A DNA stretch of 26,679 nt from NCBI GenBank assembly GCA_002269645.1, contig NIVC01005084.1, forward strand, positions 1 through 26,679, given 5' to 3'. This document shows positions 5,001 to 23,884 of the stretch, one piece after another. This stretch comes from Macrostomum lignano. Its lineage: Eukaryota. The notes below the pieces were generated by a model. The model was not told the DNA's origin. It made no database searches and saw only the letters and a list, made by a program, of their open reading frames with translations. The first letter of the stretch is position 1; each line of letters begins with the position of its first letter. The translations under genes and the position numbers were made by a program.

Positions 5001-5691
5001 GCATTTGCACGATCTGTATAAAAAGTGCATGGAATCGTATCGAATTGCCAGAGAAAAACAACAAATATCAGTCAGGCGGCAGAAGTCTAATTATGACGCT
5101 TAAGTATTCCAGCAGTATTATCAGCCAGGTGACCTGGTCTGGATAGAGAATACGCAGAACTGTTACGATACGAATAGGAAATGGGTAGGTCCGTACAGAG
5201 TGCTTGAAGTTAGAAATAATGGAAAAAAATTAAAGATTGAGCCCGGTCCGAAGGTTGACCGCATAGAGCAACCTGTCAGAATTCATGACGTAGTGACGGT
5301 AGACAGAACAAAGCCATGCTACTTGTCGGAAGAAAATTTGCGCCAGTATCGAGAAGAAGAAGCTGGAAGTGCTAGCGATGACGGCTCGGAGGAGTCAGAA
5401 AGAGTCCAAGTGGAGATTCGGAGGCCTGAGAGAATTAGATTTTTGCAACGTGAGAGAGCTCACGAAGCTACTGGAAGTAATGTGAATAGAACAGTGGAAA
5501 GCACTCAGACAGCGGCCAATGCCAACCAACAGGCCAGGCAGAGTCCTGTGCGCACTCCGCCGAATTTAATGCATCTGAGCCCCGTGCACAGTACGCCGCC
5601 GCAGCGGGCAGGCACGAGTAACATTAGCTGGATACCGCGGCTGCGAAACCGCGCGGCGATTAGACCCCCAGAGCGATATGGTCATCATTGA
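2017..5691 (+). pseudogene. pol: Decayed Ty3/Gypsy pol (end of protease/linker, RT, RNase H, integrase with GPY/F motif); 5' end (LTR, gag, protease core) missing
   Basis: RT: IEPSESEWSCPIVLARKK..FRSCCDFRQLN, FQWKVLPFG, LLYLDDVI. RNase H: FILDVDACDVAIGGNLLQ, NYCTTMKE, TDHAALQW, HGNADALSR. IN: HDQMAHGG..CTECQ zinc finger, HIDF/SDRG/CERM DDE triad, KWVGPYRV. Lesions: frameshifts at ~2830 and ~3035; in-frame stops at 3402-3404, 3801-3803, 4726-4728, 5101-5103; 37-nt extra segment at 3804-3840. Confidence 0.95.
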
Positions 5692-6266
5692 ATAGGGCCA
5701 TAGACAAAAATACTGTCGAGACGGAAATCTTCATTGTATTACTAATAGTAACTTGTCGAGACATACGCGAGAAAATTTGTAGATCGCAAGATGGAACTGG
5801 AGGAAAATTGATAATAGAAATTCAGAATTGGACATAATAAAGACTTGGAAGTGCTGATGTTGACACTGCAGTTGAGGGAGTTGGCGACGAACTGCTCGAG
5901 CTGTCACACCTGGTGGATTCCAGGATGCTCATGAGAGAGAAATACCATAGACGACCATAGAAGATATAAAACGCCGAAGGGTGCTAATTGAAATTGAAAT
6001 CGGAAAAGGGCCCAGATTGAAGTTGTCTGCGGTTCCACCGGCCAGCATATTAGGAAATATTATTATGAGATAAAATTATTAAGGAATAAATATTATTAAA
6101 AAATTATGAAAAACAGTCTTGCAGTAGAACTGACATGCGTGCATATTCGATAATAACATAAAAACTGTAAAAGGTTCATAAAAACAATACAAAAAAATAT
6201 TATTCCTAATTGCTTGAGTCAGAAACTGCTAGACACAAAAATATTAAACACTCACAGTACACTGAC

Positions 6267-6872
6267 ATGCTACATGTTGCAGCTGACATGGCTCAGCGAG
6301 AGGATGGGGAGATTCCCGACGGCGCTGCTGCGGTCCCGGAGGTGGACGTATTGGATGTGTGCGCCGCCGTCGACGATCTGGGTATGTCGGAGGCGACGGC
6401 GAAGCCATCACGAGCTGAACGGCGGCGGGAGCGGGCTCACAGGCACTACGAGCAACGACGTGCCGTGCGCCGCGCTGAACGCAAACTTGAGACATCGCCG
6501 ACGCTGACACGGCCACAGGTCTTTTCGGCCCTGAGGCGCTACATTAGAAACGACTGGAGCCGAAACCCGTTAGTAGATACGCTTCGTGCAAAGATCCGGC
6601 ACGTGCGGCTTGCTGGTCAGCAAGGCGGCATCCCGATGCCCGAATTGTTCGACACGATGGCGACGGCCGTGTCGGTGGCCATTGCCTTTACGCCCCGCCA
6701 GCGGATGCCAGACACGAGCATCGACGACATCCGAACGGCCATTTCAATTTTTTGCTATCTTGGCAGTCTATTTCGTATCAGTGTATTTTACAATTGCCGC
6801 AGTGAAATTGAGGGGTGCTTGCTTGACTTATTGCGCTGGGCAGCGGAGTACACTGTGGTCGCTGGCTATTAG
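6267..6872 (+). CDS. ORF-A, ~200-aa protein of unknown function (acidic N-terminus, Arg/Glu-rich helix, hydrophobic helical C-terminus)
   Basis: Intact GC-rich ORF within AT-rich flanks; ATGs at 6267 and 6288; CAG acceptor-like sites at 6255-6257 and 6280-6282; AATAAA at 6875-6880 just after the stop. No family recognised. Confidence 0.5.
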   Translation: MLHVAADMAQREDGEIPDGAAAVPEVDVLDVCAAVDDLGMSEATAKPSRAERRRERAHRHYEQRRAVRRAERKLETSPTLTRPQVFSALRRYIRNDWSRNPLVDTLRAKIRHVRLAGQQGGIPMPELFDTMATAVSVAIAFTPRQRMPDTSIDDIRTAISIFCYLGSLFRISVFYNCRSEIEGCLLDLLRWAAEYTVVAGY

Positions 6873-6973
6873 ATAATAAAACTGCTAATTTTAAACTACT
6901 GTACGTATTCGCACCAAGCGCCTATTTTTAAGTACCAAAGTACCTAAGGCGAGCACAAGCCTCAGCACGTGGA

Positions 6974-7378
6974 ATGCCTACAGTGCGACGAGCTTCTGTG
7001 CAAGACATGCAGCGCCATGGTGCACAAATACCCGGCTTGCAGACGGAAGCCAACGGCGCTGTCTCCGGCCTGCGAGATACCGTCAGCAGACAGGAGTCTG
7101 AGCTGGATGCCGTGCGCCGGGAGCGCAACAATGCTCTAGCTCTACAGGCCAAGACGGCGAAGGAAATAAACTGCCTCCGCAGCACGATTGCGCAGCTCCG
7201 GCAGAAGCGACAAGCCACCACCGCTGAGGCGCAGTCGGTGGCTGAATCTCTGTGCTCGTTGGCGTCCCGAGTGGCTGCAGGCTCGGCTACTGCAAGCAGC
7301 TTGTCTGCTCCTGCTGCCACTGTGGAGTCTGTGGACGAGCTCTACGACTTAATTCAACCAGCCGTCGCTACCCTGTAG
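6974..7378 (+). CDS. ORF-B, 134-aa predicted coiled-coil protein of unknown function
   Basis: Heptad-like segment LRDTVSRQESELDAVRRERNNALALQAKTAKEINCLRSTIAQLRQKRQ; GC-rich island; frame open from 6932, with AG acceptor candidates at 6931/6940/6948; the same frame stays open ~70 codons past the TAG. Confidence 0.5.
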   Translation: MPTVRRASVQDMQRHGAQIPGLQTEANGAVSGLRDTVSRQESELDAVRRERNNALALQAKTAKEINCLRSTIAQLRQKRQATTAEAQSVAESLCSLASRVAAGSATASSLSAPAATVESVDELYDLIQPAVATL

Positions 7379-7827
7379 CTCCACATTGGCCAACTCTGCG
7401 CCAATGGCGCCCTTACGGCAGCAGCGCTCCGATTACACGGAGTCCCAAACCATTTTACAGGCTGCACTGTTATGGAAAATCTTTCAATATGCTTGAAGTG
7501 GCCAGCGCTTGGAAGGAGAGTTAAGTGCAGTATTACACAGTATGTATTAAACCGGACTGTCAGTACCCTATTTCCGATACCTGGATTTTAAAAAAATCAA
7601 CGATAAACAAAAATAAATGCATAATTTAAGCTTTTTAGACCTTTCCCTGCATTTTTAAGGCAAAGAAAGCAAGCTTAGCATTGTTTTTAATGAATAAACC
7701 TTCAGTAAAAGAAATAAAATAAATGAACGAATGAAAAAAATCACTAGCTACTGTAGACGAATAGTCTAATACGAGTGTGTAGAATTATAAAAACTGACAA
7801 TTCCACTATATTTGCCTTCTTTCGTAG

Positions 7828-8577
7828 CCGTAACATGCTACTTCTGCGGTAGGGGGCACCGGGTGGCGCGATGCGAGGCCGTCCGCCAGTACTACGCACA
7901 GCAACAGGAGCAGCAGCAGCACAAGCAGAAGCAGTACCCACCATCGCCACCGACAGCCTGAGCGCCATCACGGCCCTGAGCGCCGGGCCACTTAGGCAGA
8001 GGGACTCAGTGGCAGCCGACTGCTGGCAGCTCATCCTGAACCTGACCGAGCTAGGTACCAGGACCGGCTTCTGCTGGGTCCCGGCCCACTGCGGTATAAC
8101 CGGCAACGAGGCTGCCAACCAGGCAGCGGCCAGGGCAGCAAACCTCGACCTAGGCCATGCCCCGATCCAGATGGACGCCACCAGAGCGTCCTGGACACCG
8201 CAGCAGTCGGCCCTTTCTAGAGCCTGCCTCTGGGCCTGCCGCGGAAACTGCAGGTCCTGATTAACCAGCTGCGCGCGGGCGCCAGCATGATCGACAAGAA
8301 AACTCGCCACCGGCTCGGCATCGACGCGTCCCCCTGTGCCCCGACTGCGGCGAGGTGGACAGCGCCGACCACGTCGTCCTCCGCTGCCCAAGAGGCGACC
8401 GCCACCGAGCCTAACGCGGAATTCCATTCGAGAACTTGGAGAACCCGGCCGCGGTCATCGAGCTCCTGCGCAGTATGGGGTGCCTCTAGCACCCCGCCAT
8501 TATCGGTCTTCCGGCTCGGGCGCGCCCTGAAGCAGAAAGAAAGAAAGCACCAGCACCAGCAGGGGCGGCATGATTAA
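7828..8577 (+). pseudogene. Terminal exon encoding a CCHC zinc knuckle and a Gln/His-rich tail, interrupted by a LINE insertion
   Basis: Branch-like CTGAC (7794-7798), pyrimidine tract and TAG acceptor (7825-7827); frame reads VTCYFCGRGHRVARC (7836-7874, C-X2-C-X3-H-X4-C) then EAVRQYYAQQQEQQQHKQ. Removing 7931-8529 plus one TSD copy restores in-frame KERKHQHQQGRHD* (stop 8575-8577). Confidence 0.5.
7931..8529 (+). mobile_element. 5'-truncated non-LTR retrotransposon (I-group-like: RNase H plus C-terminal CCHC finger), 8-bp TSD
   Basis: RNase H motifs TDSLSAITAL and FCWVPAHCGITGNEAAN; after frameshifts, LQVLINQLRAG and CPDCGEVDSADHVVLRC; flanked by AAGCAGAA at 7923-7930 and 8530-8537. The 3' boundary is ambiguous because the flank GAAAGAAAG could partly be tail. 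Confidence 0.85.
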
Positions 8578-8666
8578 AACTGTCTGTACTCGCGATTTAC
8601 TTAGTTATTAAGCGCGTTCGGCAAAAAAGCACCAGCCGTGTTTTCTGTGGCACAAATTAAAGTTAA

Positions 8667-9029
8667 TTATATTACCTAAAACACTGTTGTTCGTTCGTTG
8701 ACGTTGACGTTTGTGGCATTATTTCTGCAGTTGAGAAGCCAAAGGAAGTGCAAAATGGTTCCGGAAAGCTCGTCCATTTGGCAAAAGTTACTATTGTTGA
8801 TAAGTCTGGGTCGTCTGTGTCCTGCACTTTTTGGCCAGTTCTGCGCAGGTGAAAAAACTGGTCTGTCGGCGACATTCTCGCTATTCATGGTTGTCAAGTC
8901 CAAGAGTACGCCCAAATGATAAGCCTCGGCTGTTCGCAGGTAGAAGTGCATCACTGGCTGCACATGACACCAATACCGATCTTTGATGAAATCCATGACA
9001 GATTTCATTTCAATTTTTTAGATTTTTAA
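8667..9029 (+). pseudogene. RPA70-like OB-fold (ssDNA-binding) domain, disrupted; absent from the supplied ORF track
   Basis: Frame reads FVDVDVCGIISAVEKPKEVQNGSGKLVHLAKVTIVDKSGSSVSCTFW..KNWSVGDILAIHGCQVQEY, matching the RPA1 DBD-A/B pattern (VDIIG..I.L.D.SG..V.ATLW....VLAIKGARVS.F). The TGA at 8850-8852 disappears if one G is added after TGG and one A is removed from the A6 run (TFWASSAQVKNW). No ATG in frame. Confidence 0.7.
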
Positions 9030-9461
9030 CCACTTATGCCCCAGTACAGAATTTTGCGAACAGAATATTATAATGGCATTAAATATTTAAAGTATTATTT
9101 AATTCCACCATAGCATGTCATTACTACGAATGACTGTACATGTACGTGTACCATTGGATACTTGCATATGCCGAGCGTCACTAGATGCTCTCCTACACAG
9201 AACAGTATGTTATCACACTACATGACCGTAGAGCCCGATTGTTGTAATCCAAGTATGAACTGTAGGATAATACGAAGCTGAATAGATTCACTGAACGTTT
9301 TGACATTTTTGTCAATTCTACGATAAGCAGAGCAGAGTCGAGGGCGAGTATTAAATTGACCTTGGGAAAGGAACTAACATTTTCTCAAGTAATTTTTAAG
9401 TCCTAGTTTAAAGTATTTAAAAGTACAAAAAAGGTTTTAAACATATTATGCCCTACATAAA

Positions 9462-9600
9462 TCCCATATACTAAAAATGAGTTGTCTGTAGCAATGCGAT
9501 AGATTTCAGAAAAAATGGCTCAACCGATTTTCTTCAAACTTGCACCATTCGATCAGAAATTTTTCTTGGGACGGTACATGCATCTTGGCTAAGAAATTGC
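9462..9600 (+). mobile_element. Helitron-like non-autonomous element 5' end (3' limit not defined)
   Basis: A|TC start followed by ATATACTAAAAATGAGTTGTCTGT..GGCTCAACCGATTTTCTTCAAACTTG, a pattern resembling 5' ends of invertebrate non-autonomous Helitrons; recognised from memory of such families only. Confidence 0.4.
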
Positions 9601-9930
9601 TCAATTCTAAAGAGATTAAATATTCGAAAAACATGTTTATTTGCAATGTCAAGCAAAATTTTCGACTTGAAATGCATTGTAAGAATGCTAGATAAAAACC
9701 TGACTGACTGAATTCCAATTCTGATAAAGATTGCATCACAACAAGTTGAAAAGAGTGCCGAAGAAATGCACACACAACTTGATTAAAATTGCGTAATAAT
9801 ATTGCTAACTTACATTGAGACTGATACTGGCTGACTGAGAAATTGATTATGTCATAACTTTCTACTCTCACTGACTTGCTGTAAGAATTGAATTATAAGG
9901 GCCACAATTCATGTTTTCCAATTGACAAGA

Positions 9931-10000
9931 GATAGCATAGATGCGAACAGACTGGACTGCTAATGCAGCGACCTGGGTTCGAATCTTAGTAGTGCAAAAA
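9931..10000 (+). other. Degenerate tRNA-derived sequence (SINE head or tRNA pseudogene)
   Basis: A-box-like TAGCATAGATGCG (9933-9945), anticodon-arm-like CTGGA-CTGCTAA-TGCAG, T-arm CTGGG-TTCGAAT-CTTAG with B box GGTTCGAATC (9976-9985), T-run downstream. The acceptor stem does not pair, so it is not a functional tRNA. Confidence 0.45.
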
Positions 10001-10056
10001 GATTTTTTTTATTAAAACACCTTAAAAACACAAAATGCTAAACACAAAAAAGCACA

Positions 10057-10395
10057 ATGTCAAACATTAAAGAGCCATCATGTCAAACATAAAAGAGCCA
10101 CCATGTCAAACATAAAAGGACCACCATGTCGAACATTAAAGAGCCACCATGTCAAACATTAAAGAGCCATCATGTCGAACATTAAAGAGCCACCATGTCA
10201 AACACTAAAGAGCCACTATGTTAAACATTAAAGAGCCACCATGTCGAACAATAAAGAGCCACCATGTCAAACATTAAAGAGCCACCATGTCAAACACTAA
10301 AGAGCCACTATGTCAAACATAAAAGAGCCACCATGTCAAGCATTAAAGAGCCACTATGTCAAACATAAAAGAGCCACCAGGTCAAACATAAAAGA
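10057..10395. repeat. 23-bp minisatellite (ATGTCAAACATTAAAGAGCCACC), ~14-15 copies
   Basis: Directly visible tandem units with 1-3 variants each. Confidence 0.95.
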
Positions 10396-10654
10396 TACAC
10401 AATTTTAAACGTAAAAGTAAGCGTCATGCCAATTTTAAAGGAGCCACTATAGAGCTAAGGAAATTGTTGCACTAGCTACTTATTGTCTGGTGGATGCTTA
10501 CTATAGCTTTTCCCGGTCAATTTGGTCCTAGAAGCACTCAATTTAATCCGCAATAGAGAATTCCAATTCATTCCGCCGTCACTAGAGATATGTCTATGGC
10601 CAAGTATGCTGTTTCGTTCCACTCAATTTAATCCTGGGGGCACTTATTTCGCGT

Positions 10655-10785
10655 ATTTATTTTAAAAGCTATTACTTTTAAAGAAAAGAGATTGACGCAT
10701 TGATTTGTAAGCATTAAGTTGTTCAGAAACTGGCGCTACTTTCCGAGTCACTCATTCTTGCTTATTAACGGCTTTTAAAATAAAT
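10655..10785. repeat. 15-bp perfect inverted repeat bracketing 131 bp (possible MITE remnant) abutting the LTR
   Basis: ATTTATTTTAAAAGC (10655-10669) is the reverse complement of GCTTTTAAAATAAAT (10771-10785). AT-rich, so chance cannot be excluded. Confidence 0.4.
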
Positions 10786-13001
10786 GATGTAACCGCCCTC
10801 GTCGCCTGTCCGCTCCGTAGAGAGACGAACGCATGGCTAGAGGGGGCAATGACCGTAGGCTGCCTATGACCGGGCAATGACCTGACGGACCTCCAGCACC
10901 AGACTGTCCCGCCCACATGATTAGTAGCTTTGGTAGCGCTTCGTGACCAGAGGGCCAAGGACCCACATGGACCCCACCTGTAGCCAAGGTGCAATAGTTG
11001 GTCACTCGGTCATGGTATGACCGAGTGGCTGCCACCACTCTATGTGACCTGGCGCACCTGGATCTTTCTACCAGACCTCTCGAGGCTAGAGCCCCGCCTG
11101 GATTGGTTACCAGGGGATTTAGGCTAACAGGGGAGACGCATGCAGCCGAGTACAGGGACTCTGCTTGGGGCATGATCGGGAACTCTGGGCTCAATCCTGG
11201 AGGATTTCTCAGCAGGGGATCCTTTGTGGCTGTGAGCGAGGCTGACTTGCGACTTTGATTACTAAGAGTAGTATGAGGCGAACATGTACTGTCTACAGTT
11301 TAGATTGCTCAGGGCGAAGGGACGCGTTAGCATGGGGTTGCAACCTTCCTACTGCCATTCTGTGCCAAGACTCGCTAATCCCTCTACTGCACGCACACGC
11401 GGCCCCGCAGCACGCACTCACAGGCGGGCTTTGCACGGGGAGAGGCCATTAGCTTACCCAAACTTCCTTATGCTTTGCCACCCCGGGAGAAAGGCTTAGC
11501 AAGCCATGAGTGAAATGATGGTGAAAGATTGAATAATGATGAAGTTAGTTAATAGTTAATAATTAGGCCCTTAGGCAAATAAGCAGGCAATTAGGCGGCT
11601 TCACTATTGAGTAAAATACAGCAAAAGATACGGTATCACAATTGGCTCAGCTCTCTAATCAGACAATGGAAAATAGGCAAACCCCGGATAAGCAAAGGCA
11701 ATTAGAGCCCAAATTAGTAGTAGGAACTTACCGGCAGCTGCACAGAGAGAGAGAGAGGCGGAGTGACCGAGGGCGGCTGTAGGCTGCAGTCAGGCAGACG
11801 GTGAAGCGGCGATGCGCTGGAGCGACGAGGCGCTGATGTAGATCAGGCGATGCTGATGATGCTGGGCGGTATCAGACCGCTGGCCGATAGGCGAGCTCAC
11901 TTGGGGAGCTAAGGATAACTTGGCGGTAACAGACCGCGGACCGGCAGGGATTCGTCTTATAGACGAATGGGTCAGAACTCAATCTGACAGCAAGTCCAAA
12001 GAAGGACGAGGAGAGGAACAGAGATAAACTCAGTTGAGTATTCTCATGCCGAAATCGCTTCCTTTTATAGACCTCACAGCCGCCTCCTCAAGGTCGTTAC
12101 CATGGCTCCCTCTCTCTGATTGGCTGCCGGCAGAATGACGTCAGAATGAGTCATGATGAGAAGCATGAGACCGGCATAGCAACATGAGAAATCGGGAAAT
12201 TGCGCAATCCGGAGGTGGGGTGGGGGATAATTGGCGCAGCGGGTGGTCGCGAAAGTGTTGCGCAAGCAAACATTGAGAACAATAGGGCTGGGGTCGAGAA
12301 CAAAGGAATTGGAAATCGGGGATAATTGGGGAAAACTGAGAACAATGGAAAAGTAAACATTGGAGAAAAGGTGATAATTAGGTGCGAAAACGAGAACAAA
12401 AGAAAGAGAAAATCGGAGAAAATGTGATAATTGGTGGGGGTCGAGAGAACAAAAGAAGCAAAAACGAGAACAATAGAAGCGGAGGTGGGGTGGGTGTCAC
12501 ATGAGAAATTTGGGAAGGAGAACAATAGCGTGAGAAAAGGTTGCGCAAGAGAGGGGGATGAGTCATCGATGAGTCACCGAGGGGGAGAAGGGGTCACACG
12601 ACTTGCGTCACCGTTTGGGAGTTTGAGAGGGGATGGGGAGACGGTGAGCACACAAAGTACTGTAAGTAGACACAGGGAAAGAGGGGACAGCGCAGGAAAA
12701 GAGTGCAGAGGGAGACAAAAAAAGGGAGGAGGTAGAGAAAGTACAGGAAGAATAGGGCGGGAACAGAAGAGATAGGGTAGAGGGGGAGGTACAGAAAGGG
12801 GTAGGGGCTCCGGAAAGGCAGGTGTGGCGGCAGGAGAGACGGGACCAAGGCAGCAGGAGGGGTGCAGCAGAGCGGGAGTCTCCAGGCCCGGTCGGAGACC
12901 TGGCCGAGTCTCGACAGCTCTGTGCAGAGGGTGCACGGGATAGGAGGCACTTTCAAAAAAGTTCCCATGCCCTATCCCGCGACCAGAGCGTGGTTACATC
13001 A
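10785..13001 (-). repeat. 3' LTR (2217 bp)
   Basis: Starts TGATGTAACC and ends GGTTACATCA (perfect 10-bp terminal inverted repeat); differs from the 5' LTR by about 5 substitutions and 5 indels (1,7,1,1,1 nt) by eye. Confidence 0.97.
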
Positions 13002-13018
13002 CACCCCCACTGCCTTTT
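13002..13018 (-). other. Polypurine tract (PPT)
   Basis: Minus strand AAAAGGCAGTGGGGGTG immediately precedes the 3' LTR. Confidence 0.7.
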
Positions 13019-13606
13019 GTGACGGAACTGGTTCCGTCATCATCACTGCCCAACATGGAACCACACAGACGGGAGCGGGATCTCAACCGAACGTGAAATC
13101 ACAGAATTAACAAACCGCGAGCGGGAATGGAAAAAGGCGATAAAATAGAGGGGATAGCAATAAATTCACAACACGAGATACATAGGTTGGAGTGCAATAC
13201 AGAATTTCAAAAATTTCAACTGTTGCTGTGGCTAAAGTGGGAGGGGGGAAACACAGACAGCGCAATAGTAGGGAGAAAAATAGCGAATTGTCAACAATAA
13301 ATTATCATAATTGGATAGAAGCGCAGCTGGGAAAGAGAGGAAACGGGGAAGGGTGAGGGAAGTGGGGAAAAAGAAGGGGGGAAGGGTTGCTAGCACACAG
13401 CCAAGGGCAGAGCCTCGGGGAGAATGACGATTACACAGGGGAAAAATACTAATGCAGCGCAGTAAATTAATAAGCTAATTTCGCCGGGAGTTCAACCGCA
13501 CGGAGGCCTAGCGTCCTTGAAGGCTCGGACCCCGCTTCAGCCAGTCAGAGGGCTTCGGGGCGATCGGTTGTAGGCTGGGAGGCGCCGCGCCGTGCGCTGG
13601 CCACTG

Positions 13607-13719
13607 TATAAAAGGCGCCACTGATAACGGGAGCCGGCTGCCTGCAACCTACACGGAGTCGCAGTTTCCAACCAAGGCACTCAGCGCGATTTTCCAAACT
13701 ATACAACTACTCGGTAAGT
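13607..13719 (+). promoter_or_regulatory. Antisense promoter (TATA box), short non-coding exon and 5' splice site inside the LTR element
   Basis: GTATAAAAGG with TATAAAA at 13607-13613 after a GC-rich stretch; TCG|GTAAGT donor at 13714-13719. Confidence 0.55.
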
Positions 13720-14140
13720 CCCATCACCAACCTGATTTCCTTTCGCCTATACGTTAAACGAAATCTACCCACTCGCCATGCCTTTCGTTTTAAACTGAGC
13801 CAATTGCAGTAATAATATATGGCCTTTCTTACGGTAAAAGTAGTGAGCAGCCAACACAGAGCCATTTTTAGGAATTTTTAGGATAATGACACAACAATGA
13901 CTCGTATATTGGTTATTAAAGTTTAAAAATGAATATTATGGAAGAACCGAATATTAATAGGATAATATGAATAGAAGAGGGATTTGGGAGATTAGACTCC
14001 GGAGGATAAATGATGATGCGGCCCAACTCCCTTCGATTTCTTCCTTCAACGCCACGCGCACGCAGTTCTCATCCATGCCTCCGAGACCCTCATAAACTTA
14101 ACAGCCGAAAGAATTCGAAAGAGGAATTAATCATTAATTT

Positions 14141-14510
14141 GACTGCCACCAGTTTGATGTACTATTATAAAAGAGAAAGGGGAACCTACCACCATCTTGG
14201 CGCATTACCAAAGAAAAGAAAAGGAGGATCAGCCACCATTTTGAGAGAGGTTGCTAGGGAAAACTGCCACCAATTGTACATTAACAGGGAAGAGAAAGAG
14301 GGAACCCGTCACCACTTAGAGTGGATTGCCCGGGGAAACTGCCACCATTTGCCCTTCTACCAGAGGAGAGGAAGACGAAAAACTGCCATCACTTAGAGGT
14401 GTATCATTAAAAGAAGGCGGGTAAGAAGGCTACCACTACTTGATCACCTAGAGCTCAAGGGAGGAGAGGGAATGAAGAAAGGAAGAAACCCCCAGGAAGG
14501 CCACTACCAC
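14141..14510. repeat. Degenerate array (~9 units, 35-45 nt spacing) of a CTGCCACCA-core motif resembling the element's own PBS/LTR junction
   Basis: Cores near 14143, 14187, 14230, 14264, 14307, 14339, 14383, 14430, 14503 in a purine-rich background. CTGCCACCAGTTTGATGTA (14143) vs the true junction CTGCCACCATTTTGATGTA (19902-19920). Confidence 0.75.
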
Positions 14511-14600
14511 ACGCCATAAAGTTAAAATCCCCATCTATCTACATCCTAATACCCGGCTAGTTCCCTACTTCTATTTCATCCCTTAAATTCTCATTTTCAG

Positions 14601-15007
14601 GATTCCGGCCGCTAGTAGCCGAGCCCATCCTTGAAGAGGAGTCCGACTACGAAGCGCCCGAAGACAGCCATTCAGAGCCGGACGCCCCCTCTGATTCTGG
14701 GCCGGCTGCGCCATCTGGTGGCATAGGCGCCGCGGCTCCCGGGCCATGCGACCGCCGGGCCGCCAGCGAACCAGCGTCCGGGGCCGGTTGGCATCCGGTA
14801 CCACCGCCGTTGTCAGCCCGAGCGCACGCTCCGCCGCCGGTCGCCGCGGTGACGCCCGTGGCTGCCGCTCCACAGCCCTTGCCAACCCCTGTGGTGGAGA
14901 CCGACGGCTCCTGGCATTTGGTCGTGCTGTCGACGGCCCTAATAGCCGGTCTCACAATGCACTGGCTACTGCTCTTGGAGCTATTTCTGCGGCTTCCCAA
15001 CTGCTGA
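14601..15007 (+). CDS. Antisense exon encoding an acidic/Pro/Ala-rich polypeptide with a C-terminal hydrophobic (putative TM) segment
   Basis: Strong acceptor TTCTCATTTTCAG (AG 14599-14600); frame from 14603 reads FRPLVAEPILEEESDYEAPEDSHSEPD..PLPTPVVETDGSWHLVVLSTALIAGLTMHWLLLLELFLRLPNC*. No ATG identified for this frame; an overlapping 104-aa ORF starts at ATG 14746. Confidence 0.55.
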
Positions 15008-15593
15008 TGCTGGTGGTTCTTAATGCTTACTTACTAATTCTGAACTATCTGTCCCCATAACTTGACTTTAATTACTTACCTGACTTTACATTGACTAAAC
15101 CACTGGCCTACTCTAAACTAATTGCTGCCCCATTTGCCTGATAAACTTAATTACATTGAATGCCCCCCCTATTGCCTCATCGAAACCAATTAAAAGTTTC
15201 CCAAAATCGGACTTTCACAAAGTGTGAACAAACACACGAAATCAGACCTAAAGGTGCTAATTTCCTACGGTCCCAGACTTCCATTGTTCCCAGAAAATCT
15301 TAAACAGCGGGGCAGGACCTCCTGTGGAGCAGACCCATAGAAATTTTACTAGTTTCCAAGTTAATATTTACTGATAGGGAATTAACGCATACTGTACGGG
15401 CCTAATTTTCGAGCTAAAATCTTAGATATTTAAACAACACCAACGAGCACGAGGTCACAACATAAATTCGAGTAATAGAGGGCATACGTAAATACGCGAA
15501 AAGCGGTCTCCAACGGGGCAACACGAGCAAAATTTCGACACGCGAATCGGGGGGGGGAATTAAGCAATCACTGGCTAGCTACCGATCTGTTAC

Positions 15594-16112
15594 TCAGCGG
15601 GGGTCGAATGGGAGACTCACACCTAGCAAGTAAACCTTTTCTGTTCGATAGTCTATGATAGCATGCGTACTGGCTAGAAAAGCACTACCCAGGAGGGAAA
15701 CTGCTGCTGAATTGCCAACGACCAGAAAGAGGATTCTCACCTCTTCTAGCCCAATAACTGCTGTGAGGGTGGCCTGGCCTAGCATCTCTAATTCATTGCC
15801 CGTGTAGGACACGGCCTTCACACATGGGGGCTCCAGGGCCTCCACACTCTGTCCGGTAATTTTAGTAAAGTCTTTGACTGTTAGCAAAGACAGCGCACTG
15901 CCCCCATCTACCAGGAGGCGGGTGGGAACATTCTCAATTGGCAACTCTACAACAATATCTCTCCCGCGTTGTCCTCTAGCTGGTCTTGGCTGATAGAAAT
16001 CGGGTACCTTCTCAAATCTAAACTTCTTGCTGGGCGGACGTGGCAGGTTAAGCTGGGCCCTAGAGAGGGAACGGGGCTGAGTTCGGGCCGGGCCATTCAG
16101 CCCTCCCACGGG
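15594..16112 (-). CDS. pro: Retropepsin-type aspartic protease, in the -1 frame relative to the gag C-terminus; pol ends here
   Basis: IENVPTRLLVDGGSALSLL (active-site position D-G-G), KAVSYTGNELEMLG flap, LLGSAFL motif, IIDYRTEKVYLLG end. One extra C in the C5 run would extend it into a linker remnant (SVELASDCLIPP..SRVEI) that then decays. Confidence 0.85.
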   Translation of the reverse strand, partial: PVGGLNGPARTQPRSLSRAQLNLPRPPSKKFRFEKVPDFYQPRPARGQRGRDIVVELPIENVPTRLLVDGGSALSLLTVKDFTKITGQSVEALEPPCVKAVSYTGNELEMLGQATLTAVIGLEEVRILFLVVGNSAAVSLLGSAFLASTHAIIDYRTEKVYLLGVSLPFDPR

Positions 16113-16118
16113 TTTCCC
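16056..16118 (-). other. Putative programmed -1 ribosomal frameshift signal (G_GGA_AAC plus stem-loop/pseudoknot)
   Basis: Slippery heptamer at 16118-16112, in register with the ..PGSGNPWEG* frame; 8-nt spacer; 7-bp stem GGGCTGA/TCAGCCC; loop GGCCC can pair with downstream GGGCC; the -1 frame is the protease. Confidence 0.75.
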
Positions 16119-16236
16119 GAACCCGGGGGCTCTTCAGGCGTGGAAGGAGGAGGCATCAGAGCTTGCGCGCGCAGCTGGGCGAGCCTCTCCTGCCTCTCCC
16201 TGGTAGCCTCGTCTAACATATCTCTGCCCCACTCCT

Positions 16237-17541
16237 CTAAATCTTGCCTATGGCGATCAGTGGCGCACGAAGCTGCAATTGCTGCTGCTGCACACCCGGC
16301 GCCGGCGGCGTGGGCGCCTCCTGAATTGCAAGCGGCGGGGGCTGGGGTTGGCGCCAGTTCCTACTGCTATTAGAGCCGCCCTGCCCCTGCCTCCAGTTCC
16401 TGTTGGGAGTGGCGGGGCGAGGGGGCCTCATCTGCTGGGGCAGCTGGGCAACAGACTCTGCTGTCGCCTTCATAGTTTCATTGAGCTGCACCAGCTGGTT
16501 GCGCAGATCTTTTTGCGTTTGCTCTAGCGCGCCCAACCTCTCTTGCATCTCTGATAGGCCGTCACCGTCCTCCTCCGTCTCGTCAGCTTCCTGGTTCACC
16601 ATCCTGACCCACTTGCGAGGGGGCCTGGGTGGCTGCTGAGGTTGCAGACGGACTTCGGTGCGGGACTCAGACCTGGGCGGGCCACTACTGTCCCATTTCC
16701 CGGCTAAGTCTGCGGCTTCTAACAGGGCTTGCTGCTGTTCTAACACCTGCTCAATTGTCTGCCAGCGACGGCTCAACAGATCTTGTCTGACCTGGCGGGG
16801 GAGCTTAGCGTGTTCCAAGTAGGTGTACACGATTTCTTGTTCTCTCTGCTCACCCTGAATCTGAGGAAACATGGCCGTTATCTGAGATCTTATCATAGCA
16901 GCAAAAGCACTATGTGATTGGCCGGGTTTCTGGCTCAGATTCTTCAGCTTATTTCTCTTAGCCAGATCAGTGTTGGCCTCGCCCAACTGCTCTCCTAATC
17001 TAGATACGAACTGCTCAAAGGGCAATTGCCCGTCCAATCCTAAGGCTAAGTTCTGAAATTCACCTGGGAGGTGCGAGATGAGCACCTGCTTCCTAGCCTG
17101 ATCTCCTACAGTTCTCTCCGCGTCCAGCTTGTAGATCATTCTCTCTACCCATTGCACAAAACAGTGTTCGCCGGGAGAGAACTTTTCTACGTAGATTTTC
17201 GGCCTCTGGGCGTCTTGGCCCATGTTTAGCTGGTTAAACGCATTGGCTATAGCGGCAACTAAGTCTCCTAGCTGCGGGACTGCCTGAGGAGGATTCTGGG
17301 CTGCGTCCGGGGGAGCAGCGGCGGCTGCTGCGCCACCCTGATTGGGAGCGGGAGCTGCTACTCCTTCATCTGGTTCCTCAACTACTACTGCTTCTGGAGG
17401 CTGAGGGACCTGGTTACCAGCGGCTGCGGCCATTGCGGCTGCGGGGGCGGCAACTGCTGGGGTGTCAGCGGCCGAGGGTGGTTGACCAGGGGCGTCTGCG
17501 CACACAGCTTCTACGACCCTATCTCCACGCGCCCGTGACAT
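16237..17541 (-). CDS. gag: Gypsy-type Gag (capsid), 434 aa as sequenced; true C-terminus probably continues in the -1 frame to 16097
   Basis: ATG 17541 (MSRARGD); Ala/Pro-rich N-terminus; capsid-like PKIYVEKFSPG..FVQWVERM; MHR-like LKNLSQKPGQSHSAFAAMIRSQI; coiled coil; no CCHC knuckle. The adjacent frame DRHRQDLEEWGRDMLDEATRERQERLAQLRAQ..SGNPWEG* looks like the real tail. Confidence 0.9.
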   Translation of the reverse strand: MSRARGDRVVEAVCADAPGQPPSAADTPAVAAPAAAMAAAAGNQVPQPPEAVVVEEPDEGVAAPAPNQGGAAAAAAPPDAAQNPPQAVPQLGDLVAAIANAFNQLNMGQDAQRPKIYVEKFSPGEHCFVQWVERMIYKLDAERTVGDQARKQVLISHLPGEFQNLALGLDGQLPFEQFVSRLGEQLGEANTDLAKRNKLKNLSQKPGQSHSAFAAMIRSQITAMFPQIQGEQREQEIVYTYLEHAKLPRQVRQDLLSRRWQTIEQVLEQQQALLEAADLAGKWDSSGPPRSESRTEVRLQPQQPPRPPRKWVRMVNQEADETEEDGDGLSEMQERLGALEQTQKDLRNQLVQLNETMKATAESVAQLPQQMRPPRPATPNRNWRQGQGGSNSSRNWRQPQPPPLAIQEAPTPPAPGVQQQQLQLRAPLIAIGKI

Positions 17542-17556
17542 GTGAATGCCGGATAG

Positions 17557-17600
17557 CTGGGGGAGTACCCACCACCGGGAAGGAAAAGAAAAGAAAACCG
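17557..17600 (-). promoter_or_regulatory. 3' splice site 15 nt upstream of the gag ATG
   Basis: Minus strand TTTTCTTTTCTTTTCCTTCCCGGTGGTGGGTACTCCCCCAG|CTATCCGGCATTCACATG. Confidence 0.6.
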
Positions 17601-19892
17601 GGGCAACTACAGGTAAAGACCGAAAAGTTGATCCGAAACACACAAACACACTCACACACACACAAACACAGACAAAACCCACATACTTGCGGCGTCGAAG
17701 AAAACAAATTGAAAAACGGGTGGCTCCACATAATTCCATTTAGGCAGTCCTAACGGCTTCACTCGGCAAAGCACACTGACTCAAACTGCGGCTACCACTA
17801 CCAGTTGTCTATGGCACATCCTGACAGGGAAAAATTGGCTATTCAGAGAGACTTGACCTTCATTTTGCGGCCATGCTAGGGAACCCAAATGCCGACCGTA
17901 AACGGACTTACGGCACCTGTACAAATTCTCCCCTAGGGTTGCGCGCCGGACCCCATTTCCTTAAGAAAGCTACTACGAAGAAGCGTTGGCGCCTGGACCC
18001 AAAAACCCAAGTGGCGGGAGCAATCCCCATGGAGGTCCTCCCACTTTACTGCCCTTGCACAGCCGGAAAACCGTCGGAGTCCAGTGGGGCTTCCACCTCA
18101 GGACTACCAATCTTGTACACGCAGCTTCACAAAAGGCGGGAATCCAGCTCCCCTACGTCTAGCAGAATCCACAAAAACCAAGACCTCCCCTTCTGTTCAG
18201 AGCGAAGGCGCGCAGCGGGAGTCCAGACTAAACTGTCCCCGAAGTTTTCAGGTTAGGCGGATTACAAGCCTGAAACTCTCGCCCGCTTTCCTAGGATAAA
18301 CAGACCTAAGTGAGTATCTTCCTGAAATGCTTGCCCCTCCGATACTCCACCTTTGCTGCAGCTCGAAATAGCATACTTGGGACCTTTATCTGATGGCGGA
18401 GAAAGTCCTACAGTTGTCAGCCTCTCCACTTTACTGTACTTGAACGCCCGGTTCTACCAGGAGACAGCGGTACCTCCATCTAGGTTATTCCAAGTTGCCA
18501 GAGACGTCAACCCGTCTTATTGACCTTGCGGGGCACTGGGGTGGCACTCTATGTACCGGGGCTTTACATTAGGGGACTGCATGCAACCCTGCGTCTAAGC
18601 GCTTAGTGGGCTGCAGTGGCCAGAGGGGAAAAGAGTTGCGCAATAGCGCCTTCCTGGGCCAGGCTGACAAGTCGGGCAGGAGCGCCGTTCTACCGGGTCG
18701 GGCTGATTGGCACACCCACCTCCCCTATCAGACTGACAGCAGGGGGGAGGAATTACTAAAGGAGGAGAATGCAGCAGGAAACATTACGAGATCACTGGGG
18801 GCCACCAGACTTCCAGTACACCATTCCAATACTCACTGAACTCCACTATCAATAGGATACTATGGGATCTACTATTTCCAGCCACTGCACCAGCCCAAAT
18901 GCAACCAAAGCAGTTACTACCGGGTCTGCAATACAGTGGGGAGAGTCAGCAGACACGTTGGGATCGAATCCCAGCCATGAAGGCACCAGGGGTTACCGCA
19001 GAATTCAGGTCCGGGCTGATCGCAGGTATTCCATAGGAGGTGACACTTTTTTTAGCCCGAGATTTTTGAGTCACACTGATACCCTACAGAGATACAATCA
19101 CACCGCTATTCCCATTCCTGCGAGACTTTGGTATCCCCCAATGTTTCCAAGGCCATGACTACTGCTTCCCTTACTATGCATATATAGCGAGTTCCCCATA
19201 GCCCTTGATAGCTGTTCATTCTAATGGACAAACAAAACACGCTCCGGTCTCTACGCATTTCTAGGATTAACTGAGCGATCAGGGAGAGCGACTGTTACAC
19301 TCCCCCGAGTAAAAGAAAGAGGTAGGACAAAGGAAAGAAATGCTTCGCTTCCAGCTTCCCTGTGCTTGCGTGATGAGGCTTCCGTACCTGGCTGGCTGTC
19401 CACCTCAACACTCACACAGTTCTGCTGTAGGCTAGGCGAGAGAAAGAAAGGGAGGGGAAATAAAGCATATTACCATGAAATAGAAAGTGAGTCCGGAAAA
19501 TTCACTTTCGCAGTTCTTCACACACTCCGTTACCAGGTAGCTATTCTGATTGTAATCAAATCCGCTCGTCTACCACTTCACACTTTCTAGCGCTGAAACT
19601 GATCGGCTAAATTAATTTTAAATTGAATCAGGGGCTTTTGGCGAATGAATGAATTTGGAAATTTCGAATGAATTGAACGAATTCGCAGCCCGAAAAATTT
19701 GAAAAGTTACATTAATATTTTTGGATTTTGTTGCCTCACGCCATGGGAGAAGAGAATGACGATTGGCGATTTTTACGATTGGTAGATTTAGACATGGCAC
19801 TCTTTGCGCTTCGGCCACCATTCTGAGGGATGCCACAGGTGCGCTTGTCACATCTAAACCACCAGTCCGAAACTCAGCGCTGTTTGCACCAG

Positions 19893-19910
19893 ATCCCACC
19901 GCTGCCACCA
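19893..19910 (-). other. Primer binding site complementary to the tRNA-Leu 3' end
   Basis: Minus strand TGGTGGCAGCGGTGGGAT, 3 nt from the 5' LTR end; complement of the eukaryotic tRNA-Leu 3' end ATCCCACCGCTGCCA-CCA. Confidence 0.92.
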
Positions 19911-19913
19911 TTT

Positions 19914-22119
19914 TGATGTAACCGCCCTTGTCGCCTGTCCGCTCCGTAGAGAGACGAACGCATGGCTAGAGGGGCAATGACCGTAGGCTGCCTATGACCG
20001 GGCAATGACCTGACGGACCTCCAGCACCAGACTGTCCCGCCCACATGATTAGTAGCTTTGGTAGCGCTTCGTGACCAGAGGGCCAAGGACCCACATGGAC
20101 CCCACCTGTAGCCAAGGTGCAATAGTTGGTCACTCGGTCATGGTATGACCGAGTGGCTGCCACCACTCTATGTGACCTGGCGCACCTGGATCTTTCTACC
20201 AGACCTCTCGAGGCTAGAGCCCCGCCTGGATTGGTTACCAGGGGATTTAGGCTAACAGGGGAGACGCATGCAGCCGAGTACAGGGACTCTGCTTGGGGCA
20301 TGATCGGGAACTCTGGGCTCAATCCTGGAGGATTTCTCAGCAGGGGATCCTTTGTGGCTGTGAGCGAGGCTGACTTGCGACTTTGATTACTAAGAGTAGT
20401 ATGAGGCGAACATGTACTGTCTACAGTTTAGATTGCGAAGGGACGCGTTAGCATGGGGTTGCAACCTTCCTACTGCCATTCTGTGCCAAGACTCGCTAAT
20501 CCCTCTACTGCACGCACACGCGGCCCCGCAGCACGCACTCACAGGCGGGCTTTGCACGGGGAGAGGCCATTAGCTTACCCAAACTTCCTTATGCTTTGCC
20601 ACCCCGGGAGAAAGGCTTAGCAAGCCATGAGTGAAATGATGGTGAAAGATTGAATAATGATGAAGTTAGTTAATAGTTAATAATTAGGCCCTTAGGCAAA
20701 TAAGCAGGCAATTAGGCGGCTTCACTATTGAGTAAAATACAGCAAAAGATACGGTATCACAATTGGCTCAGCTCTCTAATCAGACAATGGAAAATAGGCA
20801 AACCCCGGATAAGCAAAGGCAATTAGAGCACAAATTAGTAGCAGGAACTTACCGGCAGCTGCACAGAGAGAGAGAGAGGCGGAGTGACCGAGGGCGGCTG
20901 TAGGCTGCAGTCAGGCAGACGGTGAAGCGGCGATGCGCTGGAGCGACGAGGCGCTGATGTAGATCAGGCGATGCTGATGATGCTGGGCGGTATCAGACCG
21001 CTGGCCGATAGGCGAGCTCACTTGGGGAGCTAAGGATAACTTGGCGGTAACAGACCGCGGACCGGCAGGGATTCGTCTTATAGACGAATGGGTCAGAACT
21101 CAATCTGACAGCAAGTCCAAAGAAGGACGAGGAGAGGAACAGAGATAAACTCAGTTGAGTATTCTCATGCCGAAATCGCTTCCTTTTATAGACCTCACAG
21201 CCGCCTCCTCAAGGTCGTTACCATGGCTCCCTCTCTCTGATTGGCTGCCGGCAGAATGACGTCAGAATGAGTCATGATGAGAAGCATGAGACCGGCATAG
21301 CAACATGAGAAATCGGGAAATTGCGCAATCCGGAGGTGGGGTGGGGGATAATTGGCGCAGCGGGTGGTCGCGAAAGTGTTGCGCAAGCAAACATTGAGAA
21401 CAATAGGGCTGGGGTCGAGAACAAAGGAATTGGAAATCGGGGATAATTGGGGAAAACTGAGAACAATGGAAAAGTAAACATTGGAGAAAAGGTGATAATT
21501 AGGTGCGAAAACGAGAACAAAAGAAAGAGAAAATCGGAGAAAATGTGATAATTGGTGGGGTCGAGAGAACAAAAGAAGCAAAAACGAGAACAATAGAAGC
21601 GGAGGTGGGGTGGGTGTCACATGAGAAATTTGGGAAGGAGAACAATAGCGTGAGAAAAGGTTGCGCAAGAGAGGGGGATGAGTCATCGATGAGTCACCGA
21701 GGGGGAGAAGGGGTCACACGACTTGCGTCACCGTTTGGGAGTTTGAGAGGGGATGGGGAGACGGTGAGCACACAAAGTACTGTAAGTAGACACAGGGAAA
21801 GAGGGGACAGCGCAGGAAAAGAGTGCAGAGGGAGACAAAAAAAAGGAGGAGGTAGAGAAAGTACAGGAAGAATAGGGCGGGAACAGAAGAGATAGGGTAG
21901 AGGGGGAGGTACAGAAAGGGGTAGGGGCTCCGGAAAGGCAGGTGTGGCGGCAGAGAGACGGGACCAAGGCAGCAGGAGGGTGCAGCAGAGCGGGAGTCTC
22001 CAGGCCCGGTCGGAGACCTGGCCGAGTCTCGACAGCTCTGTGCAGAGGGTGCACGGGATAGGAGGCACTTTCGAAAAAGTTCCCATGCCCTATCCCGCGA
22101 CCAGAGCGTGGTTACATCA
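19914..22119 (-). repeat. 5' LTR (2206 bp)
   Basis: Near-identical copy of 10785-13001 with the same TGATGTAACC..GGTTACATCA ends. Confidence 0.97.
21184..21695 (-). promoter_or_regulatory. LTR U3 promoter: TATA, CCAAT, CRE, AP-1 x3, C/EBP x3, repeated GATAA and AACAAT motifs (same set at 12063-12575 in the 3' LTR)
   Basis: Minus-strand TATAAAA at 21190-21184; ATTGG ~50 nt upstream; TGACGTCA 21257; TGAGTCA 21268, 21679, 21690; ATTGCGCAAT 21320 plus two more TTGCGCAA; degenerate GAGAACAA and GATAATTGG repeats. Confidence 0.75.
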
Positions 22120-22480
22120 AAAGTTCCAATTGCACCTAACAGTAAGTGAACTTTAATTTCTACCCCCACGCAGCACTTTGGGCATGTCCTGTTCTTGTAA
22201 GGAATCTTTGGTCTCACAGTCCTCATAAGTGTTTCGCAGGCTGGTTATGGATTGCTAATCTAACCTGTGACAGGGTGCGCTTGAATTCTTGATTAGAGAT
22301 CTCCTGTACATAATTTTCGGTTGAGTAGCAGCATTGGAAGCTTTGTATTGGAGAAGCGTGTCTTTCAAGGGTCATTAACCTTGGAGACGCCCTCGTGATG
22401 ACGCCAAAACCAATGATCGCCATCACTTGCTTTAGTCTTAGCATACTGTAAGTAGTGCCATTGTTACAAATAGCCATGTT
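22120..22480 (-). pseudogene. Degenerate 3' end of a non-LTR retrotransposon ORF2 (L2/Crack/CR1-like C-terminal Cys/His region), cut by the LTR
   Basis: Joining two frames gives KRTLSQVRLAIHN..RTVRPKIPYKNRTCPKCCVGVEIKVHLLL, resembling the R..LTK.RLS.H.L.IETGRY.RPKIP...R.C..C...VEDE.HFLL motif of such LINEs. Confidence 0.55.
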
Positions 22481-22876: not shown

Positions 22877-23215
22877 GCACAACCTTGGCCTGTCGTGGTA
22901 CCGCGGCCAGATGCCGCTCAGCCGACCCGGCGACGTCACCTTGGAGAAGTCACCAGCCTATTTCGTCACCGAGGCTGCCCCAGCTCGGGTGTGGCGCATG
23001 AACACCAGCATCCAGCTAATCCTCATTCTGCGCGATCCCGTGGACCGCGTTGTCAGCGACTACGCGCAGCATGTGCACCGGCGAGTCTCTAAAGAGTTGC
23101 CGCCCAAGCCGATCGAAAGTCTCGTGCTGACGCGCAACGGCGATGGCCGGGTGAATCCGAACGCCAAGATGGTGCAAACATCGCTCTATCACAGACATCT
23201 GCGGCGGTGGCTCAG
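22877..23215 (+). CDS. HS3ST: Heparan sulfate glucosamine 3-O-sulfotransferase, penultimate coding exon
   Basis: CCGCAG| acceptor and |GTGAGT donor, both phase 2; GLSWYRGQMPLSRPGDVTLEKSPAYF and 3'-phosphate-binding ILRDPVDRVVSDY motifs. The upstream PAPS 5'PSB exon was not found in the window. Confidence 0.93.
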
Positions 23216-23520
23216 GTGAGTAAAATCGAGTGGCTTATTGGTTACCCGTCTGACTCGTATTCGTGTAACATGTGCGAGTTCAAGACTTAGCGCAATTGGC
23301 TCCGCCACCACTTGTCTCGTGGCTCGTGGGTTCCTTCACAAGTTACTGAATCTTAATCACATTGCTTAACCAGTTCGTAACTCCTGAACCGTGTGACTTA
23401 AACAACTTTGACGCGTTCTTCTCATGAGTTTCGACTTATCGCCAACTTTATTTGGGTTTCTGAACGCTTTGAAAAAGTTTTTCTTAACAGTAAAGCCAAT
23501 TGGTTTCTCATACCGCTAAG

Positions 23521-23884
23521 GTACTTCAAGCCCGACCAGATCCACCTGGTGGATGGCGATCGGCTGGTCAGTCAACCGCACTCGGAGCTGAAGCAGGTCG
23601 AGGACTTTCTCGGCTTAAAGCGGCACATTCGTCCGGAGCATTTTGTCTTCAACGCCACCAAAGGCTTCTACTGTCTGGCTCCGTCTGTTAGCAGCGGCCG
23701 AGGTAAAAAACGCAGACAGCGCTGCCTCGGCTCCGAGAAAGGCCGCCGACACCCGAGCGTGGCTAATTCCACTCTGACGGCGCTGCGCCACTTTTTTGCT
23801 GGACACGACGAACGCCTCGTCCAGCTGACTGGGCGCACTTTTGATTGGATGCGACGGAACGCCCAGCAGTTTGGAGAAGAGTAA
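23521..23884 (+). CDS. HS3ST: Heparan sulfate 3-O-sulfotransferase, last coding exon
   Basis: TAAG| acceptor, phase-compatible with the upstream exon (..WLR|YFKPDQIHLVDGDRL); FNATKGFYCL..CLGSEKGRRHP..LRHFF..TGRTFDW, characteristic of the HS3ST C-terminus. Confidence 0.93.

Follow-up and report, generated by a model that had tools for sequence, protein, structure and literature searches.

Antisense open reading frames (ORFs) situated between pol and the 3' long terminal repeat (LTR) have been described in Grande, RIRE2, Retand, PvRetro13 and the fungal Boty; their function is given as unknown (PMC7264820, PMC11963269, PMC8365987). Here we describe a comparable locus of Macrostomum lignano, the + strand stretch from 13607 to 15194 of contig NIVC01005084.1, which lies in an LTR element of 11,335 nt on the minus strand containing gag and a protease but no pol. 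All positions refer to the window, i.e. the whole stretch of 26,679 nucleotides that was analysed. We consider it fairly probable that the gag-protease LTR family has a spliced antisense gene whose last exon and likely promoter are found at this locus, in a copy without the start exon; the gene would encode a 215-residue protein predicted to be tail-anchored and possibly serving as a membrane adaptor. The parts of this interpretation differ in strength: a real spliced antisense gene of the element family is very likely, its translation in the long frame described below together with membrane anchoring is probable, and a function as adaptor for particle traffic is doubtful.

The plant Ty3/gypsy antisense ORFs (maize Grande gene23, rice RIRE2, Silene Retand ORF4/TRP28 and bean PvRetro13) share with this locus a long 3' internal region and the orientation antisense to gag. 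Further likenesses are the lack of homologues outside elements, tandem repeats nearby and the non-autonomous nature of some carriers; Grande has an internal promoter of its own, for which the present locus offers a candidate. Their products are nuclear or DNA-binding, whereas here the host is an animal, the product is predicted to be tail-anchored, the gene likely has three exons and the element contains only gag and protease. The TRP28-type domain of Retand, Transposase_28 (PF04195), is absent by Pfam from P0006 and P0009, two of the database proteins described below. The placement of an antisense additional ORF of the 3' internal region (aORF-3R) is the one found here, between the coding region and the 3' LTR and opposite gag; splice polarity points to a + strand RNA, and the promoter is a candidate. 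The brtn gene of the Boty-like element (BcGypsy1) of Botrytis is also an extra antisense gene in a Gypsy element (PMC7264820, PMC8365987), but its host is a fungus and no sequence similarity to the present gene was found. Antisense accessory genes have been described in plants and fungi, with nuclear or DNA-binding products and no known function; a predicted membrane protein would widen this class.

Concerning membrane proteins of animal elements, sORF2 of the Drosophila MDG1 group, here grouped with FAST proteins, is also a small single-pass membrane protein and the accessory gene product of an env-less LTR element. It has a short N-terminal ectodomain, a central helix, a cytoplasmic C-tail and often MGxxxS/T, and is encoded on the sense strand (10.1101/2025.03.14.642691). 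The protein described here has a C-terminal helix, a long N-terminal part and Ser as residue 2, and its gene is antisense and spliced. A sORF2/FAST-like fusogen was rejected, as the N-out/C-in helix, the 10-50 residue ectodomain with MGxxxS/T and the polybasic patch after the helix, the traits named in that source, were not found. The env of Tor3b/Tor4b of Oikopleura is a membrane protein of an animal Gypsy-type element with an internal promoter, but it is a sense-strand furin-cleaved glycoprotein (PMC4402516), whereas the present protein has no ectodomain to speak of. An Env or env-like glycoprotein was ruled out by the antisense orientation and the C-terminal position of the sole hydrophobic stretch. 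Bdelloid ORF3 is an accessory membrane protein of an animal element with a different topology. The alphaherpesvirus Us9 is a tail-anchored type II protein whose cytosolic acidic cluster contains tyrosine and a CK2-type serine, and it is required for loading particles on a host motor (PMC3602541). The protein here has one tyrosine and not two, is about twice as long and is borne by a retrotransposon; Us9 serves purely as a works-like model, and no Us9-family homology was found by Pfam or protein database search. In the literature, we found no description of this gene, nor of any animal, multi-exon, tail-anchored antisense one, in a search that covered subscription journals thinly and had an earlier M. 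lignano LTR classification outside its coverage. The M. lignano LTR catalogue begins from reverse transcriptase (RT) (PMC12801592); catalogues based on RT pass over an RT-less family because RT is their starting point.

The evidence for splicing comes from contigs of sequencing runs. Four of the 24 listed runs (X1, X2, X10 and X15, from four studies) were compared with 10785-19913; all four consist of contigs, three guessed to be RNA and one of unknown kind. At least half of the words are contained in 20 of the 24 runs, 14 of which are guessed to be RNA and none of which is on record as RNA; X21-X24, with shares near zero, do not enter the comparison. Contigs lead from upstream sequence straight to the acceptor at 14600/14601 in two of the four runs (X1 and X10). 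A single 2420-nt contig of X1 comprises window positions 12972-13966, then 1395 other letters and then the joint at 14600, and a contig of X10 has 28 other letters ahead of 14600 which by eye match the residues of P0006 before the junction. The intron contig stops at 14629 in both runs, as a merge at the 14600 acceptor predicts. Since a + strand acceptor (polypyrimidine-CAG) closes the segment that is skipped, the spliced RNA runs antisense to gag. An earlier note on this DNA, made from the letters alone, had proposed exactly such a transcript spliced at this acceptor, and the X1 and X10 contigs bear it out. It had also looked to junctions at 14601: upstream-exon joins are present in these two runs, and none from 13713 is found among the 11 joints listed for the four runs, in contigs that lose rare forms.

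The upstream exon is not in the window. At 13966, contigs of X1, X2 and X10 (three of the four runs) depart from the window and continue for some 1.4-1.6 kb in different sequence, X1 also has a contig re-entering it at 13963, and no contig bridges 13963-13966 as in the window among the 32 of 1435 pieces listed. Other copies carry about 1.6 kb or more at this point (13963-13966), including the start-codon exon of 80 codons plus 1 nt; the longer form with the upstream exon is seen in 10 of the 11 database models discussed below and in three of the four runs. The window copy is without the start-codon exon, and the four letters common to both sides of that point would fit a microhomology deletion or an assembly error. 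The start exon is thus not hidden in the window, since other copies hold it in the segment lost at 13963-13966, and without it the window copy likely cannot make the 215-residue protein. Contig ends also bear on the exon borders: an X10 contig ends 1397 letters past 13966 and the exon end in X1 is at 1396, the one-letter offset to be expected if the contigs branch at a donor with G as its first letter. An X2 contig ends 1180 letters past 13966. With the exon start about 4 nt before the ATG, a contig of intron 1 would end there if the exon spliced in had a final G, which exon 1 has; use of the 13714 donor is thereby no more than hinted at. An X2 joint at 13836-14079 has unknown letters between its sides (depth 18).

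Eleven database proteins match the locus, all from Macrostomum lignano and at 74-100% identity; the long frame (frame A) matches at 99%. The upstream exon is present in 10 of the 11 models, and seven of them connect it in phase to the codon at window position 14600. The clean form, of 215 residues, is P0006, with 80 residues of the upstream exon, for which the window contains no real match, and 135 residues of frame A at 99.3%. The phase-1 upstream exon which the earlier note had found necessary is therefore the 80-residue exon of these seven models, and the frame reached in phase is the acidic 135-codon one. Five models end in frame A. Three, each shifted at a different place, finish in the alternative frame B, one ends at an early stop, and two are chimeras. 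It is plausible that the frameshifts of the models are long-read assembly errors, a view supported by the short-read contigs of the four runs, in which frame A shows no indel among 12 of the 19 rows listed. The genome paper reports 31.92% and 63.95% error-free bases for two M. lignano assemblies and describes the annotation as genome-guided transcript assembly (PMC5730564). The start of the ATG exon is placed about 4 nt before the ATG by two lines: in P0003 and P0007 the translation continues across a stretch resembling an acceptor immediately upstream of the ATG, and P0011, which consists of a host sulfotransferase exon, the ATG exon and then window 14599-14631, has its host exon joined just before the ATG in phase 2, which is also that of the 22876 host acceptor. 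The BOX15 names of P0005 and P0011 presumably belong to the genome-guided annotation mentioned above. At its junction P0005 has four other residues instead of GFRP, either because the splice was called at a shifted position or because the underlying copy has a minor rearrangement at the intron.

The gene is concealed in the databases under unrelated automatic names. The labels US8A, GPS, BON, LigA and ORF3 are attached to near-identical models and were discarded as evidence, including the UniRef label 'US8A' on P0006 and P0008, which as one among several unrelated labels does not speak for a Us9 type. P0006 had no usable match in the protein atlas, and its pattern matches in viral contigs (34) and metagenome contigs (599) gave no confirmed case.

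Looking at the signals of the gene separately, all the motifs that the earlier note had named are in place. The candidate promoter TATAAAAG (TATAAAA(G); 13607-13614, + strand) occurs four times in the window (expected 1.15; two of 100 shuffles reach four), namely at 13607, at 14166 and, in minus-strand orientation, in each of the two LTRs. Candidate non-coding exon 1 (13637-13713, + strand; about 77 nt), whose 5' end is assumed 30 nt past the TATA box, contains no ATG, as had been noted, and the contig-length hint given above bears weakly on it. It is followed by the candidate donor GTAAGT of intron 1 (13714-13719, + strand), which ranks third among the + strand donors of the element. The 3' part of intron 2 (13963-14600, + strand) ends in an acceptor with a polypyrimidine tract and CAG, which ranks first among the + strand sites of the element; the ranks are from a simple generic scoring devised for this analysis. 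The coding part of the last exon (14601-15007, + strand) corresponds to residues 81-215 of P0006. Its frame A is open for 135 codons (14600-15004; stop 15005-15007) and, in agreement with the earlier description, is acidic (net charge -11), rich in Pro and Ala and hydrophobic at its C-terminus. The candidate poly(A) signal ATTAAA (15189-15194, + strand) is a motif only, and no poly(A) tail was found among 24 of the 150 loose contig ends listed. Two ACTAAT motifs in the AT-rich candidate 3' untranslated region (15033-15038 and 15117-15122, + strand) resemble what we take to be STAR-protein sites. On the minus strand, the best donor (15079) and the best acceptor (13327) bracket the entire antisense gene, and a splice between them would remove it from the genomic RNA; no joint of this intron is found among the 11 listed for the four runs, with the same loss of rare forms.

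Concerning the protein, the single-sequence model of P0006 is disordered over about 180 residues except for a helix at residues 184-214 (14909-15001, + strand; predicted local distance difference test, pLDDT, 88-98). The hydrophobic core of this helix lies at about 187-206 (Kyte-Doolittle, KD, 2.0), and about nine residues follow it. P0006 has no signal peptide and its sole hydrophobic stretch is C-terminal. One hydrophobic helix near the C-terminus, no signal peptide and a short tail are the features of a tail anchor, here by prediction, and P0006 is predicted to be a tail-anchored protein with a long cytosolic part; the earlier suggestion of a membrane or tail-anchored product is in line with this model. 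Hydrophobicity itself does not discriminate between the frames, as A and B both finish in a hydrophobic stretch with KD 2.0 over 19 residues; the expectation of a hydrophobic end thus held for both without choosing one. The N-terminus of P0006 contains seven arginines in residues 5-16 and is amphipathic (moment 0.79). The acidic motif AEPILEEESDYEAPE (14618-14662, + strand; residues 87-101) holds the only tyrosine of the protein, and its EEESDYEAP presumably carries Y-x-x-P and a kinase site of the form S-x-x-E. The DSG-x4-S motif at 112 lies in low-complexity sequence and was disregarded as probably fortuitous. A joint model of four copies of residues 172-215 scored 0.12 and gave no usable assembly.

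The mechanism which these parts would compose is the following. The internal TATA promoter at 13607 would start a + strand mRNA independently of the LTR promoter and convergent with gag-pro. This mRNA would have three exons: non-coding exon 1, an ATG exon of about 245 nt after a 1.4-kb intron, and the last exon, separated from the ATG exon by at least about 0.84 kb of intron and followed by poly(A) addition after 15194. Insertion into the membrane would be post-translational and the long part cytosolic, given the lack of a signal peptide, the approximately 180 disordered residues and the single C-terminal helix. The partner of the EEESDYEAP motif would be a host adaptor, either a sorting adaptor or one of SH2 type, and the protein would bring Gag particles to the membrane for transport or cell-to-cell passage, as Us9 does for herpesvirus particles. 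An element without pol which keeps gag, protease and the antisense gene fits a role in particle handling. Going further, it is conceivable, if quite improbable, that an RT-less element with capsid, protease and an antisense tail-anchored adaptor under a separate promoter passes particles via host membrane traffic between cells (e.g. from soma or neoblasts to the germ line) without Env or a FAST-like fusogen. The host animal has transgenesis and RNAi and the splice has contig support, so the function of the gene is testable.

Conservation between P0006 and the diverged P0009 (74%) is uneven. The acidic motif has one change in 15 residues and the C-terminal segment two in 34, against 12 in 35 for the linker, and four of the six residues just past the junction differ; Fisher tests against the linker give p = 0.076 for the motif and p = 0.006 for the C-terminal segment, for segments picked after the alignment had been seen and in one protein pair without DNA. 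The first exon of P0009 is identical at 79 of 80 residues, so this protein is a mosaic, and mosaic recombination or a DNA-level constraint could mimic the pattern. Together with this choice of segments, several findings weigh against the interpretation given above. The family is young, so intact frames need no selection, and nothing links the protein to Gag or any membrane. Frameshift signs are present in nine of the 10 models with the ATG exon, and only P0006 is free of them. Relatives outside M. lignano were found neither among 1.84 billion representatives (five hits) nor among 7719 candidates (eight hits), and Pfam has no family for P0006 or P0009. The runs are contigs merely guessed to be RNA. 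X2 and X15 run unbroken through the acceptor, leaving two of the four runs without the splice, and X2, the source of the hint for the 13714 donor, is one of these; X1 and X10 pass that donor unspliced. Both frame A substitutions listed for the four runs, in a table with 77 further rows outside the listing, are non-synonymous in frames A and B alike.

The alternative that survives best, unlikely as we consider it, is that the gene acts as RNA: a spliced antisense transcript would damp the element by interference or double-stranded RNA, and the 215-codon frame would be a GC-rich by-product. Long frames are indeed cheap in this patch, as in dinucleotide shuffles of 14601-15007 the given frame stays open in 78 of 2000 and some one of the three frames in 245 of 2000, and two frames on the other strand, of 122 and 127 codons, are likewise open across the same GC-rich sequence. 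The frameshifts of nine of the 10 models point the same way, as does the complementarity of the whole unit to the 3' part of the genomic RNA, and non-coding antisense RNAs are reported for micropia and others (PMC7264820). The signal from sequence alone is accordingly modest; it rises above chance because the contigs reach the acceptor from an upstream exon and the database models join there in phase. A by-product is at odds with this phase match between the ATG exon and the long frame, with the retention of motif and helix in P0009 while the linker drifts, and with the codon-position bias of frame A, which is like that of gag (G 0.42/0.16 at positions 1/2 vs 0.37/0.17). An RNA role and a protein role can coexist.

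Rather improbable is a protein tail-anchored at the inner nuclear membrane, where the Arg-rich start would be a nuclear signal followed by an unfolded linker, and which would tether RNA or DNA of the element. This layout is modelled on yeast Heh1/Heh2. It would account for the seven N-terminal arginines and for the disordered residues before the helix, and plant antisense products are nuclear or predicted to be DNA-binding. However, the Arg-rich start is equally amphipathic in the manner of a mitochondrial presequence, and the N-terminus therefore points to no single place.

It is very unlikely that the element captured this unit from a host gene and carries it as a passenger without use to itself. 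The unit retains introns and its own TATA box, and the youth of the family would leave its frames intact without selection. Introns are however no mark of capture, because reverse transcription of the sense strand retains antisense introns whatever their origin; all 11 database hits look like copies of the same unit, and no host source gene was found. Finally, splicing of exon 1 directly to 14601, which the earlier note had offered as a second option with ATG 14746 opening frame B (104 codons, net charge +11; a basic protein with a hydrophobic end), is hardly credible: this ATG would be the first of such an RNA and in good context, three models finish in frame B, and it would be the only product remaining to the shortened window copy, but those three models get there solely via shifts out of frame A, any copy that has the ATG exon offers an earlier ATG a long way upstream of 14746, and the 13713-14601 join, missing from the contig joints above, occurs in just one of the 11 models, P0002, a 1204-residue chimera.

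The element which contains the antisense gene is bounded by two long direct repeats with inverted TG..CA ends and 10-nt inverted ends, all on the minus strand. The 3' LTR (10785-13001; 2217 nt) ends in TGATGTAACC...GGTTACATCA, the 5' LTR (19914-22119) has 2206 nt, and their alignment contains 2201 matches, five substitutions and five indels; the youth of the family follows from LTRs that differ by just five substitutions in 2206 letters. No target-site duplication was found, the flanks 10780-10784 and 22120-22124 being unlike over 4-5 nt despite the near-identical LTRs; a recombined copy or an assembly join is possible. A purine tract beside the 3' LTR is the place of the polypurine tract (PPT) in established LTR anatomy, and a purine-rich tract at 13002-13016 (minus strand), placed by this anatomy, is the candidate. 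The primer-binding site (PBS) TGGTGGCAGCGGTGGGAT (19893-19910, minus strand) lies 3 nt from the 5' LTR, and we take it to be of the tRNA-Leu type. The 9-mer CTGCCACCA is the end of the PBS (19902) and is also present in each LTR; intron 2 contains six matches to it (at most one mismatch), each preceded by a purine tract, in a degenerate array at 14143-14391 (+ strand). The window has 18 matches in total, against 6.1 expected and with none of 100 shuffles reaching 18. On genomic RNA these copies would add sites complementary to the 3' end of the primer tRNA.

The gag-like frame (16237-17541, minus strand; 434 codons from ATG 17541) has protein-atlas feature matches of 0.93-0.94 to Retrotrans_gag/Ty3_capsid clusters (129-131 features in common). 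Its fold search is headed by five PNMA2 and Arc capsids (E 0.05-0.7, none at E <= 0.001), and Pfam gives a weak PNMA match (E 0.044); sequence homologues were found neither near its length nor longer. These three weak lines agree on Retrotrans_gag/PNMA/Arc and suggest that the frame is Gag-like. The aspartic-protease-like frame (15594-16133, minus strand; LLVDGGS) matches gag-asp_proteas at E 0.021, below the curated cut-off. After it there is no RT, RNase H or integrase, and a scan of six non-coding frames of the minus strand (three each of 13003-15596 and 17740-19913) gave no family match and no pol remnant. As the window copy lacks pol, the superfamily assignment rests on Gag likeness: the element appears to be a Ty3/gypsy-type LTR retrotransposon in a non-autonomous gag-protease form. 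An autonomous partner element was not found.

The LTR 10785-13001 has a contig depth far above the interior (about 7,000-16,000 vs 210-510 in X15), and contigs of X2 and X10 depart from it at 12898 into one common other sequence; perhaps solo LTRs or related elements, including an autonomous partner, have most of the LTR in common. A small indel near the 3' end of gag separates the window from all four runs, and another in the 5' leader from three, so the window copy or its assembly may be faulty at these two places. Each LTR also contains a strong acceptor followed 6 nt on by a strong donor (11732-11737 and 20853-20858, minus strand), a candidate micro-exon with no supporting joint among the 11 listed. 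Rfam and ARAGORN found nothing in the window. Heat-shock elements of the form GAAnnTTCnnGAA number zero on either strand, so there is no tie to the heat-induced families of PMC12801592; also, LTR-end motifs, the PBS motif and the words 'antisense' and 'non-autonomous' are absent from its five supplementary files.

Downstream exons of a host sulfotransferase (22877-23884, + strand; Sulfotransfer_1 E 2.4e-05 and 3.3e-09) follow an acceptor of phase 2 whose last letter is 22876. An intron of this gene is the likely site of the element, with the exons 760 nt past the element. The upstream host exon of P0011 has no match in the window; a copy with the ATG exon seems to be inserted in such an intron, as P0011 splices the host upstream part in phase 2 into the ATG exon. 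By this one model, the acceptor of the ATG exon may trap the host sulfotransferase transcript.

Elsewhere in the window, a separate decayed Gypsy-type pol (1877-5691, + strand) is broken by stops; its matches are to RT (E 5.3e-10), to integrase (E 1.2e-17) and, weakly, to a dUTPase-like domain (E 0.014). The + strand regions 6210-7378 and 7853-8260 contain frames of 220 and 148 codons without a family, the second coiled-coil-like, as well as a fragment that resembles RNase H (E 2.7e-05). Repeats occupy 1-1538, 10053-10395, 24200-24568 and 26399-26679: one has a unit of about 888 nt, and the tandem arrays have units of 23, 46 and 25 nt.

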